Part shown: positions 983 through 64,000 of the stretch, one piece after another | Position numbering within the stretch: the first letter of the stretch is position 1 | How the letters are laid out: every line of letters begins with the position of its first letter | DNA from: Escherichia coli | GTDB taxonomy: Bacteria > Pseudomonadota > Gammaproteobacteria > Enterobacterales > Enterobacteriaceae | Length of the DNA: 64,000 nucleotides | Strand: one strand, 5' to 3' | NCBI RefSeq assembly: GCF_051903065.1 | Contig: NZ_CP178438.1 | Program-made: the position numbers and the translations under genes | The notes under the pieces: model-generated | Database searches by the model: none | What the model was told of the DNA's origin: nothing | Seen by the model: the letters and a program-made list of their open reading frames with translations, nothing else

Positions 983-1010
983 TTAGTTACTGCAGTAGAG
1001 GATTTTTTAC

Positions 1011-1250
<240 letters not shown>

Positions 1251-1305
1251 GGCCTTTGGCAACGATTATCTTATGAGATTGGGGCAATTACGCGCCCTCG
1301 TCAAA

Positions 1306-13306: not shown

Positions 13307-13985
13307 CCATTTAGCAAGGAATAATAAGAGAGGGAACTCATTTTGAAATCATTATTCAATCGGTTAACGGGAAAAGCGGTTAGCCGGACAGCTTTCGTCG
13401 AACACCTTGGTCATGAAGTTGTACAACATCATCCAAACTGGAAAGTCATGATTTCGACTGACCATAAATTGATGCGCATTGATACTCCACTAAACAGCTA
13501 TTATTGATACGCCTCCGTCGCCTGTTAGGTTTATGGTGCTTTGCCTGGGCGACGCTACGCTTAACCTGTTACTGATTTCTGGTACCATGGGGTGAATAAT
13601 CTGATTTTATTTGGCTACAAATTAACCACTCGAACCTATTTAATGCTGAGCATTGTCAGTCGGTTAATTTTGCGTGCTTTAGCATTCACATCTATCCAGA
13701 CGATGCAGTGAAAATTGGGTAATCCCCAGCAACCGCTGCGTAATGTCGTCTATCTTGTCGCGATCCTGGCATCCCTACATTATTTGTGGTCTGTGAAGAT
13801 TATCTCATTGCAGCCCCTCATCTTCGCAGGGCTGGCTTTACAGCTTTTCACCTTACGTTATAAGAAGTTCCGTCGATGATGGCGCTAATTTCGTGAATTG
13901 TGCGGCTTGTTGCAAATTACACGGTGTTGAAGGTTATTTACATGTTAGCTGTTGATTATCTTCCCTGATAAGACCAGTATTTAGC

Positions 13986-14012
13986 TGCCAATTGCTACGA
14001 AATCGTTATAAT
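13986..14012 (+). promoter_or_regulatory. Candidate sigma70 promoter for accBC (-10 TATAAT at 14007-14012)
   Basis: Perfect TATAAT about 270 nt upstream of accB ATG; -35 not clearly assignable; accBC is known to have a long leader. Confidence 0.3.
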
Positions 14013-14283
14013 GTGCGACCTCGTCCTCCCTGACGCAGTTTTTGCGCTGCGGAAAAGGTGACATTGGCGCAACGAAGGTATATTTTGTTTTTTGCCGGAG
14101 GATAGCAGCAGATCGCTGCACAATGTCCGTCAAGTCTAACATTGACACTCTGGGGCAAAATAGACCGGCGTCCCGGCCTGCTGGAATTTATCGCTATGCA
14201 TACAGCTGTCGGGGCATACGCTTTACAGACGGCGGTGAAACGCCTGTCACAATCACACTAAACAAAGAGTACGGAACCCACTC

Positions 14284-14754
14284 ATGGATATTCGTAAGAT
14301 TAAAAAACTGATCGAGCTGGTTGAAGAATCAGGCATCTCCGAACTGGAAATTTCTGAAGGCGAAGAGTCAGTACGCATTAGCCGTGCAGCTCCTGCCGCA
14401 AGTTTCCCTGTGATGCAACAAGCTTACGCTGCACCAATGATGCAGCAGCCAGCTCAATCTAACGCAGCCGCTCCGGCGACCGTTCCTTCCATGGAAGCGC
14501 CAGCAGCAGCGGAAATCAGTGGTCACATCGTACGTTCCCCGATGGTTGGTACTTTCTACCGCACCCCAAGCCCGGACGCAAAAGCGTTCATCGAAGTGGG
14601 TCAGAAAGTCAACGTGGGCGATACCCTGTGCATCGTTGAAGCCATGAAAATGATGAACCAGATCGAAGCGGACAAATCCGGTACCGTGAAAGCAATTCTG
14701 GTCGAAAGTGGACAACCGGTAGAATTTGACGAGCCGCTGGTCGTCATCGAGTAA
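14284..14754 (+). CDS. accB: Biotin carboxyl carrier protein of acetyl-CoA carboxylase
   Basis: 156-aa [31 protein letters not shown] with Ala/Pro linker and EAMKMMN biotinylation motif. Confidence 0.95.
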
Positions 14755-14764
14755 CGAGGCGAAC

Positions 14765-16114
14765 ATGCTGGATAAAATTGTTATTGCCAACCGCGGCGAG
14801 ATTGCATTGCGTATTCTTCGTGCCTGTAAAGAACTGGGCATCAAGACTGTCGCTGTGCACTCCAGCGCGGATCGCGATCTAAAACACGTATTACTGGCAG
14901 ATGAAACGGTCTGTATTGGCCCTGCTCCGTCAGTAAAAAGTTATCTGAACATCCCGGCAATCATCAGCGCCGCTGAAATCACCGGCGCAGTAGCAATCCA
15001 TCCGGGTTACGGCTTCCTCTCCGAGAACGCCAACTTTGCCGAGCAGGTTGAACGCTCCGGCTTTATCTTCATTGGCCCGAAAGCAGAAACCATTCGCCTG
15101 ATGGGCGACAAAGTATCCGCAATCGCGGCGATGAAAAAAGCGGGCGTCCCTTGCGTACCGGGTTCTGACGGCCCGCTGGGCGACGATATGGATAAAAACC
15201 GTGCCATTGCTAAACGCATTGGTTATCCGGTGATTATCAAAGCCTCCGGCGGCGGCGGTGGTCGCGGTATGCGCGTAGTGCGCGGCGACGCTGAACTGGC
15301 ACAATCCATCTCCATGACCCGTGCGGAAGCGAAAGCTGCTTTCAGCAACGATATGGTTTACATGGAGAAATACCTGGAAAATCCTCGCCACGTCGAGATT
15401 CAGGTACTGGCTGACGGTCAGGGCAACGCTATCTATCTGGCGGAACGTGACTGCTCCATGCAGCGCCGCCACCAGAAAGTGGTCGAAGAAGCACCAGCAC
15501 CGGGCATTACCCCGGAACTGCGTCGCTACATCGGCGAACGTTGCGCTAAAGCGTGTGTTGATATCGGCTATCGCGGTGCAGGTACTTTCGAGTTCCTGTT
15601 CGAAAACGGCGAGTTCTATTTCATCGAAATGAACACCCGTATTCAGGTAGAACACCCGGTTACAGAAATGATCACCGGCGTTGACCTGATCAAAGAACAG
15701 CTGCGTATCGCTGCCGGTCAACCGCTGTCGATCAAGCAAGAAGAAGTTCACGTTCGCGGCCATGCGGTGGAATGCCGTATCAACGCCGAAGATCCGAACA
15801 CCTTCCTGCCAAGCCCGGGCAAAATCACCCGTTTCCACGCACCTGGCGGTTTTGGCGTACGTTGGGAGTCTCATATCTACGCGGGCTACACCGTACCGCC
15901 GTACTATGACTCAATGATCGGTAAGCTGATTTGCTACGGTGAAAACCGTGACGTGGCGATTGCTCGCATGAAAAATGCGCTGCAGGAGCTGATCATCGAC
16001 GGTATCAAAACCAACGTTGATCTGCAGATCCGCATCATGAATGACGAGAACTTCCAGCATGGTGGCACTAACATCCACTATCTGGAGAAAAAACTCGGTC
16101 TTCAGGAAAAATAA
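14765..16114 (+). CDS. accC: Biotin carboxylase
   Basis: ORF-track ORF starts at upstream ATG; true ATG at 14765 gives [26 protein letters not shown] (449 aa). Confidence 0.95.
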
Positions 16115-16129
16115 GACTGCAAAAGCGTC

Positions 16130-16156
16130 AAAAGGCCGGATTTTCCGGCCTTTTTT
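16130..16156 (+). terminator. Rho-independent terminator after accC
   Basis: aaaaggccggattttccggcctttttt: GC stem followed by T-tract. Confidence 0.6.
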
Positions 16157-16222
16157 ATTACTGGGGATCGACAACCCCCATAAGGTACAATCCTCGCTTT
16201 CTTCACCCATCAGGGACAAAAA

Positions 16223-16465
16223 ATGGACACTCGTTTTGTTCAGGCCCATAAAGAGGCGCGCTGGGCGCTGGGGCTGACCCTTTTGTATCTGGCAGTTTGG
16301 TTAGTAGCCGCTTACTTACCTGGCGTTGCCCCCGGTTTTACCGGCTTTCCGCGCTGGTTTGAGATGGCCTGCATCCTGACGCCGCTGCTGTTTATTGGAC
16401 TGTGCTGGGCGATGGTGAAATTTATCTATCGCGATATCCCACTGGAGGATGACGATGCAGCTTGA
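16223..16465 (+). CDS. yhdT: Small inner-membrane protein YhdT
   Basis: 80-aa hydrophobic ORF overlapping the panF start, as in the yhdT-panF arrangement. Confidence 0.8.
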   Translation: MDTRFVQAHKEARWALGLTLLYLAVWLVAAYLPGVAPGFTGFPRWFEMACILTPLLFIGLCWAMVKFIYRDIPLEDDDAA

Positions 16466-20500: not shown

Positions 20501-21196
20501 ATGAGAACAGGATGTGAACCGACCCGGTTTGGTAATGAAGCTAAGACCATTATTCACGGTGATGCCCTTGCCGAACTTAAAAAGCTACCTACTGAAAGCG
20601 TCGATCTGATCTTTGCCGACCCACCGTATAACATCGGTAAAAATTTTGATGGTCTGATCGAAGCCTGGAAAGAAGATCTGTTTATCGACTGGCTGTTAGA
20701 AGTGATTGCAGAGTGCCACCGCGTTCTGAAAAAGCAGGGCAGCATGTACATCATGAACAGTACGGAAAACATGCCCTTTATCGATCTCCAGTGCCGCAAG
20801 CTTTTTACCATCAAAAGTCGCATCGTCTGGTCATATGACAGTTCTGGAGTGCAGGCGAAAAAACACTACGGCTCCATGTACGAACCCATCCTGATGATGG
20901 TGAAAGACGCAAAGAACTACACATTCAACGGTGATGCTATTCTGGTAGAAGCCAAAACCGGATCGCAGCGCGCGTTGATCGATTATCGCAAAAATCCTCC
21001 ACAGCCTTACAATCATCAAAAAGTACCGGGTAACGTCTGGGATTTTCCGCGCGTGCGTTATTTGATGGATGAATATGAGAACCACCCGACGCAAAAACCG
21101 GAAGCCTTACTGAAACGCATTATTCTCGCCTCTTCCAACCCAGGCGATATCGTTCTCGACCCGTTTGCCGGTGATGCTGCCAACTTACTGATTTAG
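20501..21196 (+). pseudogene. yhdJ: DNA adenine methyltransferase YhdJ, 3'-truncated by IS1; reading frame runs 8 codons into the IS1 inverted repeat to a TAG
   Basis: MRTGCEPTRFGNEAKTIIHGDAL...DPPY motif...DPFAG then GDAANLLI* encoded by the IS1 end (GGTGATGCTGCCAACTTACTGATTTAG); native YhdJ is ~294 aa by recall. Confidence 0.8.
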
Positions 21197-21224
21197 TGTA
21201 TGATGGTGTTTTTGAGGTGCTCCA

Positions 21225-21500
21225 GTGGCTTCTGTTTCTATCAGCTGTCCCTCCTGTTCAGCTACTGACGGGGTGGTGCGTAACGGCAAAAGCACCGCCG
21301 GACATCAGCGCTATCTCTGCTCTCACTGCCGTAAAACATGGCAACTGCAGTTCACTTACACCGCTTCTCAACCCGGTACGCACCAGAAAATCATTGATAT
21401 GGCCATGAATGGCGTTGGATGCCGGGCAACAGCCCGCATTATGGGCGTTGGCCTCAACACGATTTTACGTCACTTAAAAAACTCAGGCCGCAGTCGGTAA
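21225..21500 (+). CDS. insA: IS1 InsA (transposition inhibitor / N-terminal part of transposase)
   Basis: 91-aa [40 protein letters not shown] with GTG start. Confidence 0.9.
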
Positions 21501-21922
21501 CCTCGCGCATACAGCCGGGCAGTGACGTCATCGTCTGCGCGGAAATGGACGAACAGTGGGGCTATGTCGGGGCTAAATCGCGCCAGCGCTGGCTGTTTTA
21601 CGCGTATGACAGGCTCCGGAAGACGGTTGTTGCGCACGTATTCGGTGAACGCACTATGGCGACGCTGGGGCGTCTTATGAGCCTGCTGTCACCCTTTGAC
21701 GTGGTGATATGGATGACGGATGGCTGGCCGCTGTATGAATCCCGCCTGAAGGGAAAGCTGCACGTAATCAGCAAGCGATATACGCAGCGAATTGAGCGGC
21801 ATAACCTGAATCTGAGGCAGCACCTGGCACGGCTGGGACGGAAGTCGCTGTCGTTCTCAAAATCGGTGGAGCTGCATGACAAAGTCATCGGGCATTATCT
21901 GAACATAAAACACTATCAATAA
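21419..21922 (+). CDS. insB: IS1 InsB reading frame (expressed as InsAB' transposase by -1 frameshift at the A6C motif near 21476)
   Basis: 167-aa ORF in the -1 frame relative to insA; TTAAAAAACTC slippery motif at 21474-21484. Confidence 0.8.
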
Positions 21923-22015
21923 GTTGGAGTCATTACCCGGTGATAAAATGGCATTCAGCTCGTTAATAAGAGAGTTAACTTATTAAGCGTTAGCGTTTAT
22001 TACTGAGGTAACACC

Positions 22016-56592: not shown

Positions 56593-57075
<483 letters not shown>

Positions 57076-57081
57076 CCGCGC

Positions 57082-57109
57082 ATTATACGCAAATCTGAGC
57101 CTGACGCAA
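57082..57109 (-). promoter_or_regulatory. S10 operon promoter (-35 TTGCGT, 16-bp spacer, -10 TATAAT, GCGCGGG discriminator)
   Basis: rc of 57082-57109 reads TTGCGTCAGGCTCAGATTTGCGTATAAT followed by GCGCGGGC. Confidence 0.65.
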
Positions 57110-57282
57110 GCATCGGGCAGAAATTAATCGCAACGCGCAGATTGCGAGCTGCATTCCACGAAATTTGTAAGGTTGTGAAGATAGCGTTTTTCACCGGAAT
57201 CAGGTTAACAAATCAGCGCTCTCTCTGTTGCTGAGCATCCGGAGTTATTCGATGGTGATACTCCAATTACAGAGGATGTTTT

Positions 57283-57750
57283 ATGGACACTACCCTTCCC
57301 TTTCTAATTTTGTACGCTTGTTTATCAGCCCTACTTTTTTTCTGGGATGCAAAGCATGGCTTGTTACCTGACAGATTTACGTGCCCGTTACTCTGGTCAG
57401 GTCTTTTGTTCTATCAAGTTTGTCATCCTGATGGTTTAGCCGATGCGTTATGGGGGGCAATTATTGGTTACGGCACATTCGCTGTCATTTACTGGGGGTA
57501 TCGCATACTGCGCCATAAAGAAGGATTAGGCTATGGTGATGTGAAGTTTCTCGCCGCCCTTGGCGCCTGGCATTCATGGGCCTTCTTACCACGACTGGTT
57601 TTCCTTGCTGCCTCATTCGCTTGCGGAGCCGTAGTTATTGGTCTGCTCATGAGAGGAAAAGAATCATTAAAAAACCCGCTGCCTTTTGGGCCATTTCTGG
57701 CGGCTGCGGGTTTCGTTATAGGCTGGGATAGTTTGCTGATAGGCCGTTAA
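57283..57750 (+). CDS. Type IV prepilin peptidase-like membrane protein (peptidase A24 family), short form (155 aa); probably corresponds to the terminal gspO gene of the T2SS locus found here in K-12
   Basis: 155-aa hydrophobic ORF with LLPDRF and [18 protein letters not shown] motifs (the two catalytic-Asp motifs of prepilin peptidases); RBS GAGGA 8 nt upstream; convergent with bfr. Confidence 0.7.
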
Positions 57751-58223
57751 TCTTTAACTTTAATTTGTGATTGCAGGTAATTTTGTAGGCCGATTTTACC
57801 GATGAGATCCAGTTCAGTTTCGAGCCAGTCGATATGACCTTCTTCATCGGCAAGGATCTCGATCATCATATCGCGGCTAACATAGTCATGAACGCTGTCG
57901 GCATACGCGATAGCCTCACGCAGATCCTTCGCACCTTCCAGCTCTAATCGCAGGTCGGATTGCAGCATCTCTTCGACATCTTCACCGATCCCTAGCTTAC
58001 CTAAATCCTGTAAGTTGGGGATTCCTTCTAAAAACAAAATACGCTCGATATATTTATCAGCGTGTTTCATCTCATCGATGGATTCATGGTATTCGACGTC
58101 ATTAAGACGCATCAGTCCCCAGTTTTTAAACATCCGGGCATGGAGAAAATACTGATTGATTGCGACAAGCTCATTTCCCAATAGTTTATTGAGATAATTT
58201 ATGATTTTAACATCACCTTTCAT
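57747..58223 (-). CDS. bfr: Bacterioferritin
   Basis: 158-aa [59 protein letters not shown]. Confidence 0.9.
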
Positions 58224-58295
58224 TTTATAGTCCCTCCGCTTCCACTATTAGAGCGTAGATGGGGCTAGCGGGATGTCAAAAAATAAGCGTGGGCT

Positions 58296-58490
58296 TCAGG
58301 CAATCTCTTTAAATTCTGGCATCTGCATCAACTCGTCCTGCATCACTTCGCGCGCGGCGCGAATGCACTTACCACATTGATTTCCCACAGGAATAAACTT
58401 ACGCAATTGTTGGAAAGATTGCGGATGAAACTGACGGACTGCCTGGCGAATTTTTTTGTCACTTACACCATTACACAAACAAACGTACAT
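58296..58490 (-). CDS. bfd: Bacterioferritin-associated ferredoxin
   Basis: 64-aa ORF MYVCLCNGVSDKKIRQAVRQF...GNQCGKC with [2Fe-2S] Cys motif. Confidence 0.9.
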   Translation of the reverse strand: MYVCLCNGVSDKKIRQAVRQFHPQSFQQLRKFIPVGNQCGKCIRAAREVMQDELMQMPEFKEIA

Positions 58491-58523
58491 GATTGCTCCC
58501 GTTCAAATTCTGCGCAAAGTGTA

Positions 58524-58546
58524 AATGAGAATAGTTATGATTACAA
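58524..58546 (-). promoter_or_regulatory. Candidate Fur box upstream of bfd
   Basis: rc reads TGTAATCATAACTATTCTCATT, a partial match to GATAATGATAATCATTATC; bfd is Fur-regulated by established knowledge. Confidence 0.35.
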
Positions 58547-58622
58547 TAGCACAGTTTTATTTGCGCCATAGTTCAGCGAGCAAAATTACGACTAAATATT
58601 TCGAGCTCAAATTACGGGCAGC

Positions 58623-58647
58623 AAAAAGGGCGCCGAAGCGCCCTTTT
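58623..58647 (-). terminator. Rho-independent terminator after tufA
   Basis: Minus-strand transcript: GGGCGCTTCGGCGCCC hairpin followed by TTTTT. Confidence 0.7.
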
Positions 58648-58672
58648 CAATTCAAAACTAATTAACGTGTAA

Positions 58673-59914
<1,242 letters not shown>

Positions 59915-59927
59915 TTAACCCTTAGGC

Positions 59928-62054
<2,127 letters not shown>

Positions 62055-62138
62055 TTATCTTTTAGGCGTTCAATTTAAGTAGCCCAAAGCGGGCTGCTTA
62101 CTGGAAGCGCCCGCCTGGTGACTAAAACTCCGAAGGGA

Positions 62139-62624
<486 letters not shown>

Positions 62625-62705
62625 TTAATTCAGGATTGTCCAAAACTCTACGAGTTTAGTTTGACATTTAAGTTAAAACGTTTGGCCTTACTTAACGGAG
62701 AACCA

Positions 62706-63183
<478 letters not shown>

Positions 63184-63205
63184 GAAATATACAACGATCC
63201 CGCCA

Positions 63206-63493
63206 TCACCAGGCCATCTGGCTGGAGTGCTTAACCGTAAGTCTGACGAAATCAGTATAGTCAATGGGAATGATGTCGTTCGAAATTTGACCAGTCAAAC
63301 CGCGGGCAATAAGGTCTTCGTTCAGGGCATAGACCTTAATGGGGGCATTACGCAGACTTTCAAGGTAGCGGTTACCGTCAACTGCGGCAGTTACGCCATC
63401 TTGCAATAATAGCAGTTCGTCGCCTTCACTGAGCAGACGCAGCAGCGCAGCAAAATCCGTCAGCCAGGGTGAACGATGTAACGTGTGCAGCAT
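63206..63493 (-). CDS. tusB: Sulfur relay protein TusB
   Basis: 95-aa [37 protein letters not shown]. Confidence 0.9.
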
Positions 63494-63500
63494 AAACGCC

Positions 63501-63859
63501 TCAAAACCTCAAAATAACATCGTAGTTGGCGAGTTCGCGGCGTAAGGCATCTGCTTCGAGCGGCGTGGCTTCGACAACAAAGGGGGTCTGCGGATCTAAC
63601 CCGCGTTCGCGCAGTGAAGCCGCACAAACCCAGCACTGTTCAATGTCGTACAGACCCAACAATTTAAAAGTGGCAATGTAATCACGCGCCAGCACTGCAT
63701 CGGGCTTTTGTCCTGGCAGTAGCTGAAAAACGCCATCAGCAATAAAGAAGACGGCCAGCTCGTCAGTTAACGCGGAAGTTGCCAGTAAAGCATCTAAACC
63801 TTCCCGCCCGGCAGCGGTACCATGAGGCACAGTAGAAAAAACAAACGCAATTCGTTTCA

Positions 63860-63860
<1 letters not shown>
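63501..63860 (-). CDS. tusC: Sulfur relay protein TusC
   Basis: 119-aa [42 protein letters not shown]. Confidence 0.9.

Positions 63861-64000
<140 letters not shown>

Follow-up and report, generated by a model that had tools for sequence, protein, structure and literature searches.

Two old alternative cassettes probably occupy the str-S10 inter-operon space of Escherichia coli, the short hopD-bfr-bfd form being ancestral and the long K-12 form acquired

The DNA analysed here (the window) is a stretch of 64,000 nucleotides of the Escherichia coli chromosome (NCBI RefSeq assembly GCF_051903065.1, contig NZ_CP178438.1), which extends from yhdP to tusC and is collinear with positions 3.392–3.475 Mb of K-12. 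Between the str and S10 operons it carries genes for a bacterioferritin (bfr), a bacterioferritin-associated ferredoxin (bfd), and an orphan prepilin-type peptidase (hopD). The features of this region are listed in Table 1. The genes bfr and hopD are convergent, and their 3' ends overlap by 4 bases.

Table 1. Features of the str-S10 region in the window.
Feature	Position	Strand	Remarks
rpsJ, first gene of the S10 operon	56593..56904	-	conserved left flank; 100% identical to K-12
Apparent S10 operon promoter (left edge of the cassette)	57082..57109	-	-10 TATAAT 57087-57082; -35 TTGCGT 57109-57104
Short str-S10 inter-operon cassette (hopD-bfr-bfd)	57089..58620		entire non-collinear stretch relative to K-12; 1,532 bases
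hopD, orphan A24 prepilin-type peptidase	57283..57750	+	155 aa; without adjacent secretion genes
bfr, bacterioferritin	57747..58223	-	158 aa; enterobacterial-typical allele class
bfd, bacterioferritin-associated [2Fe-2S] ferredoxin	58296..58490	-	64 aa
AT-rich motif upstream of bfd	58522..58548	-	TAAATGAGAATAGTTATGATTACAATA on the + strand; best-conserved piece upstream of bfd between the haplotypes
str operon terminator, hairpin and T-run 3' of tufA (right edge of the cassette)	58621..58647	-	assigned by sequence reading
tufA, last gene of the str operon	58673..59857	-	conserved right flank; ~99.7% identical to K-12

The product of bfr was assigned to the TIGR00754 equivalog family (267 bits, cut-off 125.55) and matched PF00210 (Ferritin) with an E-value of 1.8e-37. 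In E. coli Bfr, residues E18, E51, H54, E94, E127, and H130 are the ligands of the di-iron ferroxidase centre and M52 is the haem ligand; all seven were the same in the window protein and in K-12 Bfr. The best PDB matches were the full-length bacterioferritins 8w8z and 26rv, followed by K-12 1bcf (E-values of ~1e-90 to 1e-98), which indirectly supports the predicted 24-subunit haem-containing iron-storage shell. Bfd was likewise assigned to its equivalog family (NF007803, 148.5 bits, cut-off 75) and matched PF04324 (Fer2_BFD), and its translation contained C4, C6, C39, and C42, the four cysteines of the [2Fe-2S] cluster. To judge from its letters, the AT-rich stretch that precedes bfd probably serves as a Fur-box-like operator.

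The peptidase, for which the database name is leader peptidase HopD, matched PF01478 (Peptidase_A24) with an E-value of 3e-22. The domain A24_N_bact (PF06750), which is the N-terminal domain of bifunctional peptidase/N-methyltransferases, was not found by Pfam in the 155 residues of HopD and was found in the 254-aa GspO encoded on contig L093. Residues D22 and D86 (the latter in GLGYGD) were invariant across the aligned HopD and GspO sequences; in the A24 family, the two conserved aspartates are catalytic. The dN/dS ratio of hopD was 0.10–0.11 in comparisons with the copies of a clade-V-like Escherichia and Salmonella, so the gene is maintained. HopD was 41% identical to K-12 GspO over 138 residues. 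It was 50–66% identical to the orphan HopD proteins of other genera and 42–49% identical to GspO proteins encoded within secretion operons, and the latter were likewise closer to one another than to orphan HopD. The low identity, the lack of adjoining gsp genes, and the grouping with orphan HopD rule out that the gene is the orthologue or a remnant of K-12 gspO. These distances suggest that the orphan and the operon-linked lines split long ago. Two hopD matches at 79–80% (L088 and L089) were discarded, as they came from error-ridden assemblies with fragmented ribosomal genes.

Comparison with K-12 revealed that the cassette is bounded sharply on both sides. Its K-12 counterpart occupies 16,638 bases (3453455–3470092) and contains gspB, gspA, gspC-O, bfr, bfd, and chiA. 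Within the cassette, only positions 57763–58547 could be aligned to K-12 by blastn, with 77.4% identity (170 mismatches in 787 aligned bases), and the K-12 segments 3453455–3466264 and 3467046–3470092 gave no blastn alignment anywhere in the window. The absence of the gsp and chiA genes noted in the preliminary description thus extends to gspAB, gspC-O, and chiA in full. The left flank (21937–57088) was 99.2% identical to K-12 by blastn and reached 100% in each 250-base step between 54000 and 57088; the right flank (58621–64000) was 99.5% identical (28 mismatches in 5380 bases), with 99.2–100% in the 250-base steps between 58750 and 63250.

At the left edge, identity to K-12 was perfect up to position 57088, one base beyond the −10 hexamer, and was lost in the 16 bases that separate it from TTGCGT; both haplotypes share this second hexamer but not the spacer. 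The TATAAT/TTGCGT pair is a putative S10 promoter by its sequence; a consensus promoter scan did not call it, the −35 hexamer matching at only 3 of 6 positions. At the right edge, near-identity to K-12 restarted at 58621 with GCAAAAAGGGCGCCGAAGCGCCCTTTT, where a GC-rich stem followed by a T-run can be read directly on the minus strand; the terminator scan made no call for tufA. The variable unit thus coincides with the inter-operon space, from the S10 −10 box to the str terminator.

The two bfr-bfd alleles are strongly diverged. Window Bfr differed from K-12 Bfr at 19 of 158 residues (12%; 139 of 155 identical in the part aligned by BLASTP), slightly above the figure of about 10% estimated beforehand from a remembered K-12 sequence, which direct comparison with K-12 proved essentially right. 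The difference claimed at the C-terminal tetrapeptide is real as well, with REEG in K-12 and KVKD in the window (R155K, E156V, E157K, and G158D). The several substitutions seen in Bfd amount to 8 of 64 residues (56/64 identical). By pairwise alignment, both proteins fall well under 98% identity to K-12, the level that the preliminary description had named as speaking against divergence, and identity by position gave 99–100% for the flanks. The only difference at a position that we assume, from the Pseudomonas BfrB-Bfd pair, to be important for Bfd binding was L68I in Bfr.

Across the coding DNA of bfd and bfr taken together, the two forms found in E. coli shared 79.1% identity (~21% apart). 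Synonymous sites were saturated (dS ~2.3), with dN of 0.084 and dN/dS of ~0.04–0.06; for the single genes, dS was 1.5 for bfr and not computable for bfd. The value of dN between the forms was about three times that between the window and Salmonella. The contrast between bfr-bfd and the flanks is far beyond chance. Given strong purifying selection and the retention of all functional residues, both allele classes are predicted to encode working Bfr and Bfd. The preliminary description had also pointed to the E. coli-like character of the neighbouring ribosomal and EF-Tu genes. This holds at the nucleotide level; at the protein level it is a weak argument, because ribosomal and EF-Tu proteins are near-identical across genera.

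A simple explanation would be a deletion, in which a K-12-like ancestor lost gspA-O and chiA and bfr-bfd diverged afterwards. The gsp and chiA genes are indeed absent, a peptidase gene still adjoins bfr, and the genome paper on E. coli W speaks of a 'gspO-rpsJ deletion' (PMC3032704). However, a recent deletion from the K-12 arrangement is refuted by the saturated synonymous sites of bfr-bfd between flanks that are 99.5–100% identical, and the peptidase at 41% identity is no fragment of GspO. We regard this explanation as having next to no chance of being correct. The sharp edges, together with the same two observations, bear out the earlier proposal that the segment is a recombinant or ancient block and not a simple deletion derivative.

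The distribution of the two forms was determined among 5,426 complete E. coli genomes. A 1,481-base query over the window block was found at full length in about 2,254 of them (~42%); by identity, 393 matches were at 99% or above and 1,866 at 95–99%. The hopD side alone was found in 2,255 genomes, and 3,156 genomes contained only a bfr-bfd match of ~78% to the short query. The reciprocal K-12 query was found at full length in 3,153 of the 5,426 genomes (~58%) with 98.1–100% identity, and as ~78% matches in 2,232. Intermediates between the classes were a handful at most, with one genome in the typing by the K-12 query. Identity within the short form went down to 96.8% (diversity of up to 3–5%) and within the long form down to 98.1%; diversity within a class thus reaches species-level values.

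Carriers of the short form included O157:H7, O145:H28, O104:H4, O111:H8, and IAI39, and carriers of the long form included K-12, EC958, ATCC 25922 (Seattle 1946), and an avian O2:K1:H4 strain. A possible UniProt listing of the Bfr of O157:H7 as identical to K-12 Bfr was set aside, since seven O157:H7 genomes matched the window cassette at 99.9%. The long-form strains presumably belong to phylogroups A and B2 and the short-form strains to B1, E, and F. With the phylogroups so assumed, neither form follows a single-clade pattern. In a published comparison, laboratory strains of group A carried gspA-O and no B1 strain did (PMC3032704). These few strains and that comparison would together point to exchange of the cassettes between lineages.

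The layout tufA-bfd-bfr-hopD-rpsJ is widespread outside E. coli. It was found in Salmonella (L090), many Citrobacter, Kluyvera, Pluralibacter, Silvania, Buttiauxella, and other genera. A scan with window Bfr yielded 80 loci, none of them from Escherichia or Salmonella, and loci of these two genera were reached by way of protein clusters and by looking up contigs that contain an exact sequence. The Escherichia short-form contigs compared were L083 (clade-V-like, with the HopD of E. marmotae), L094 (E. albertii), and L095 (E. fergusonii-like); the species labels of L083 and L095 are names found in protein clusters, not names of the contigs themselves. Nucleotide identity to the window was 95.2% for bfr, 96.4% for bfd, and 92.8% for hopD in the E. 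fergusonii-like contig; 92.0%, 94.4%, and 86.3% in the clade-V-like contig; 91.2%, 90.2%, and 85.2% in E. albertii; and 84.5%, 85.6%, and 68.8% in Salmonella. Combined bfd and bfr of Citrobacter were 85–87% identical to the window. A similar grading was shown by tusB, a neighbouring non-ribosomal gene (93% for L083, 90% for E. albertii, and 77% for Salmonella). The identity of the short cassette falls in the order of the species tree and therefore indicates vertical descent of the ancestral Escherichia version. The occurrence of the same layout and allele class, with graded identity, in Salmonella, Citrobacter, E. albertii, and others also speaks against a deletion within E. coli.

The same data bear on the converse possibility, namely that the K-12 form is native and the short cassette was imported into some E. 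coli from another genus or Escherichia species. Window Bfr is 94–98% identical to the Bfr of Phytobacter, Citrobacter, Enterobacter, and Kluyvera, and Bfd shares 63 of 64 residues with that of Citrobacter amalonaticus; the flanks would allow recombination across genera, and the long form is the majority form. Yet at the DNA level the nearest relatives are other Escherichia (90–96%), then Citrobacter (85–87%) and Salmonella (85%), as vertical descent predicts, the fast-evolving hopD gives the same order, and the internal diversity of the short form within E. coli also speaks against an import. An import of the short cassette is accordingly very improbable in our view.

In contrast to this gradient, K-12 bfr and bfd were 76–83% identical to those of the E. 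fergusonii-like and clade-V-like contigs, E. albertii, Citrobacter, and Salmonella alike. The cluster of K-12 Bfr consisted of E. coli, 'Escherichia', and Shigella boydii, and all else among the 5.8 billion proteins searched was at 90% or below. When K-12 GspL was searched outside E. coli, the matches were E. ruysiae (85%), contig L093 from Logan run ERR3904647 (60%), and Superficieibacter (53%). The E. ruysiae locus had the full long layout, with identities to K-12 of 96.2% for bfr, 94.9% for bfd, 91.9% for chiA, 86% for gspL, and 92–96% for gspD-G; the long form is thus present in E. ruysiae at species-level divergence from K-12.

Neighbour-joining trees were built from Bfd and Bfr, 219 residues only, with 300 bootstraps. 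The window allele was placed with the other Escherichia short forms, Citrobacter, and Salmonella, and the K-12 allele with Superficieibacter and other alleles adjacent to secretion systems. K-12, E. ruysiae, L093, and Superficieibacter were joined in 93% of the 300 bootstraps, and a single group of all Escherichia alleles appeared in 0 of 300. The window allele and the clade-V-like Escherichia were joined in only 70% of the bootstraps, and the wider Escherichia-Citrobacter-Salmonella group in only 5%. The earlier reading of the window segment as a variant block holds, with its direction corrected: the window block is typical of the lineage, and it is the K-12 block that carries the exotic allele lineage.

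The searches turned up no close donor for the long cassette: the one with K-12 Bfr gave nothing above 90% outside its own cluster, and the matches to GspL were likewise distant. As there is no near-identical donor (Superficieibacter is ~18% away in bfr-bfd), the direction and source of the transfer rest on the shape of the tree. Base composition marked neither cassette as foreign (GC content of 48.8% for the K-12 island, 44.6% for the short cassette, and 50.9% for the window). Silencing by H-NS is common for acquired DNA. In K-12, gspC-O and chiA are silenced by H-NS (PMC5797941).

Across the order, the tufA-rpsJ gap was found in three states: with bfd-bfr alone (Erwinia, Pantoea, and Xenorhabdus), with hopD beside bfd-bfr, and with a complete gsp operon that may be accompanied by chiA. 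A gsp operon at this same site was found in Citrobacter amalonaticus S646, C. braakii, Enterobacter sichuanensis, Trabulsiella, Yokenella, Kosakonia oryziphila, Superficieibacter, Chimaeribacter, and Rahnella. This distribution brings in a further alternative, a very old polymorphism without any transfer between genera, in which balancing selection would have kept both forms since before the genera of Enterobacteriaceae split and lineages would have sorted or retained them. Such a history would fit the finding that several genera, and even the single named species Citrobacter amalonaticus (L006 and L015), have loci both with and without the secretion system at this site; it would also fit the partial clustering of alleles by cassette class rather than by genus and the occurrence of both forms in E. 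coli at 42% and 58%. Nevertheless, both forms would have had to survive side by side across many speciations; those Citrobacter cassettes that include a secretion system carry Citrobacter-like bfr-bfd, so cassette class and allele are not strictly coupled; and Chimaeribacter, a member of another family, falls among the alleles of Enterobacteriaceae, which resembles transfer. We therefore hold an old polymorphism of this kind to be unlikely, though less so than an import of the short cassette.

The flanking operons offer a means of replacement. The nucleotide identity of rpsJ was 95–99.7% across the sampled Escherichia species and Salmonella, and rpsJ with its leader was 91–99% identical across other genera. 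Among genera of Enterobacteriaceae, tufA was 94–98% identical, with exact runs of 89–206 bases. Between genera, the flanks as a whole contained exact runs of 70–206 bases, and bfr-bfd was only 79–87% identical. A few tens of exactly matching bases suffice for homologous recombination in E. coli. Conserved flanks with such long exact runs would therefore permit replacement of the whole cassette, even across genera.

Taken together, we consider it likely that E. coli carries two old alternative str-S10 cassettes, inherited and exchanged as units, of which the short one is ancestral and the long one was acquired. The cassette boundaries, the frequencies of the two forms, the graded identities, and the placement in the tree are direct observations behind this interpretation. 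The short cassette, 1.5 kb with hopD, bfr, and bfd, would go back to a time when Escherichia had not yet separated from Salmonella and Citrobacter, with vertical transmission ever since. The long cassette, 16.6 kb with gspAB, gspC-O, bfr, bfd, and chiA, would have entered the lineage of E. coli and E. ruysiae from outside; its donor may have been a more distant lineage of Enterobacteriaceae with a secretion system at the same site, of which Superficieibacter is the nearest sampled and still distant representative. Each cassette has its own bfr-bfd allele lineage. Replacement would occur through homologous recombination within the extremely conserved operons on either side, and the coexistence of both forms in E. 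coli may predate its diversification. A broader proposal is also conceivable but rather doubtful: that the str-S10 gap is a site of cassette exchange throughout Enterobacteriaceae, where flanks that rank with the most conserved DNA of the genome let whole cassettes be swapped even between genera, whether or not they include a type II secretion system and chitinase, that both Escherichia cassettes are kept across species boundaries by balancing selection, and that K-12 Bfr and Bfd are xenologues that were inherited together with the secretion-chitinase module and may have co-adapted with it.

The variable presence of the T2SS-alpha among E. coli strains has been described, and the short form was called a deletion and its peptidase 'GspO' (PMC3032704, PMC3707838); on the interpretation favoured here, to speak of a deletion reverses the history. 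In an association study of mastitis, bfr and bfd appeared as accessory genes at exactly the frequencies of gsp and chiA (PMC11390585), which is explained by the existence of two allele classes. No description of two bfr-bfd allele classes or of their polarity was found in open-access papers and preprints. In pan-genome tools, bfr and bfd are split into two 'accessory' genes whose distribution follows that of gsp and chiA perfectly, and association studies may score iron-storage genes when the true signal is the whole cassette. K-12 Bfr and Bfd, the basis of nearly all biochemistry and structures, represent only ~58% of E. coli and are not typical of the genus; the Bfr of O157:H7, O104:H4, O111:H8, and roughly 42% of complete genomes is 12% different from that of K-12.

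Earlier work and existing annotation already cover the genes, the haplotype, and the variable presence of the secretion system. The locus represents no new kind of system; it is ordinary population genomics in which the K-12 reference is the outlier, and it would offer a natural example of how ultra-conserved flanks drive the replacement of cassettes. Insertion of bfd, bfr, and hopD between the str and S10 operons has been reported for Salmonella (PMC6735719). The S. enterica insertion has the same layout and gene lengths as the window, and its Bfr and Bfd fall within the 90% protein clusters of the window proteins, with genus-level divergence at the nucleotide level. The short cassettes of E. 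albertii and of the E. fergusonii-like and clade-V-like Escherichia also have the window layout and differ from it only at the species level. K-12 (b3336 and b3337) resembles the window in the tufA-rpsJ gap, in the order and orientation of bfd-bfr, and in the lengths of the proteins (158 and 64 aa), but differs in the presence of gspAB, gspC-O, and chiA (T2SS-alpha) and in having GspO instead of HopD. The K-12 layout is found again in Superficieibacter sp. (UBA5654; tufA-chiA-bfd-bfr-gspO..C), the nearest sampled relative of the long cassette outside Escherichia, in which Bfd belongs to the 90% cluster of K-12 Bfd, the bfd and bfr DNA is 78% identical to the window and 82% to K-12, and the Gsp proteins are 43–84% identical.

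At the loci of Citrobacter amalonaticus S646 and C. braakii, the gsp operon adjoins bfr and chiA is apparently absent. The bfr-bfd alleles of both loci are Citrobacter-like, not K-12-like, and the coupling of cassette class to allele class is therefore not strict. Another genome labelled C. amalonaticus carries hopD in place of the gsp operon.

The long cassette is itself uneven. Regions 13930-16394 and 21469-21978 of the K-12 locus (L001) were compared with the E. ruysiae contig (L091). Identity was 92-96% for gspD-G and lower for gspA (77.6%), gspC (79.2%) and gspH (82.5%), which is a second layer of mosaicism within the island. This E. ruysiae contig comes from a draft, and the genes after tufA on it resemble coaA, birA and murB, the neighbours of tufB; the assembly has probably joined the two loci through the duplicated tuf genes.

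The full long layout of gspA, gspC-O, bfr, bfd, chiA and tufA was found on a 41-kb Logan contig from ERR3904647 (L093). Its identity to K-12 was 84.5% for bfr and 60% for GspL, and in the tree it was placed together with K-12, E. ruysiae and Superficieibacter. L093 may thus far lie nearer to the lineage of the donor. GspO is 225 aa long in K-12 and E. ruysiae vs. 254 aa in L093; approximately 31 residues of the L093 protein, including a Cys-rich stretch, are absent from the two shorter proteins. The Pfam domain A24_N_bact was not found in K-12 GspO.

Coordinates of the features discussed in this part
Feature	Sequence	Position	Remarks
gspO of K-12	L001	25544-26221	compared with L093 11627-12391
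tufA followed by coaA-, birA-, murB-like genes	L091	16223-21164	
Tandem array, 91-base unit	window	1009-1255	2.7 copies, 92% match
IS1 element (InsA/InsB ORFs)	window	21172-21937	yhdJ truncated by IS1

Elsewhere in the window, comparison with K-12 showed that IS1 replaced approximately 6 kb of the K-12 sequence (3412324-3418311), comprising the 3' end of yhdJ, yhdU, envR/acrS, acrE and acrF. Since both acrE and acrF are gone, the strain is without the AcrEF efflux pump. In a set of 5,426 complete genomes of E. coli, the contiguous IS1 junction was shared by only 2-3. The tandem array, located in the tldD-yhdP intergenic region, has REP/BIME-like palindromic content; it was found in K-12 too and looks ordinary.

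In a published table of accessory genes with fitness association, bfr and bfd are both listed (PMC11390585, Table 3). Their strain proportions, 0.812 vs. 0.375, are exactly equal to those of gspA-O and chiA (PMC11390585). Such proportions would be expected if the pan-genome clustering had split the two bfr-bfd allele classes.
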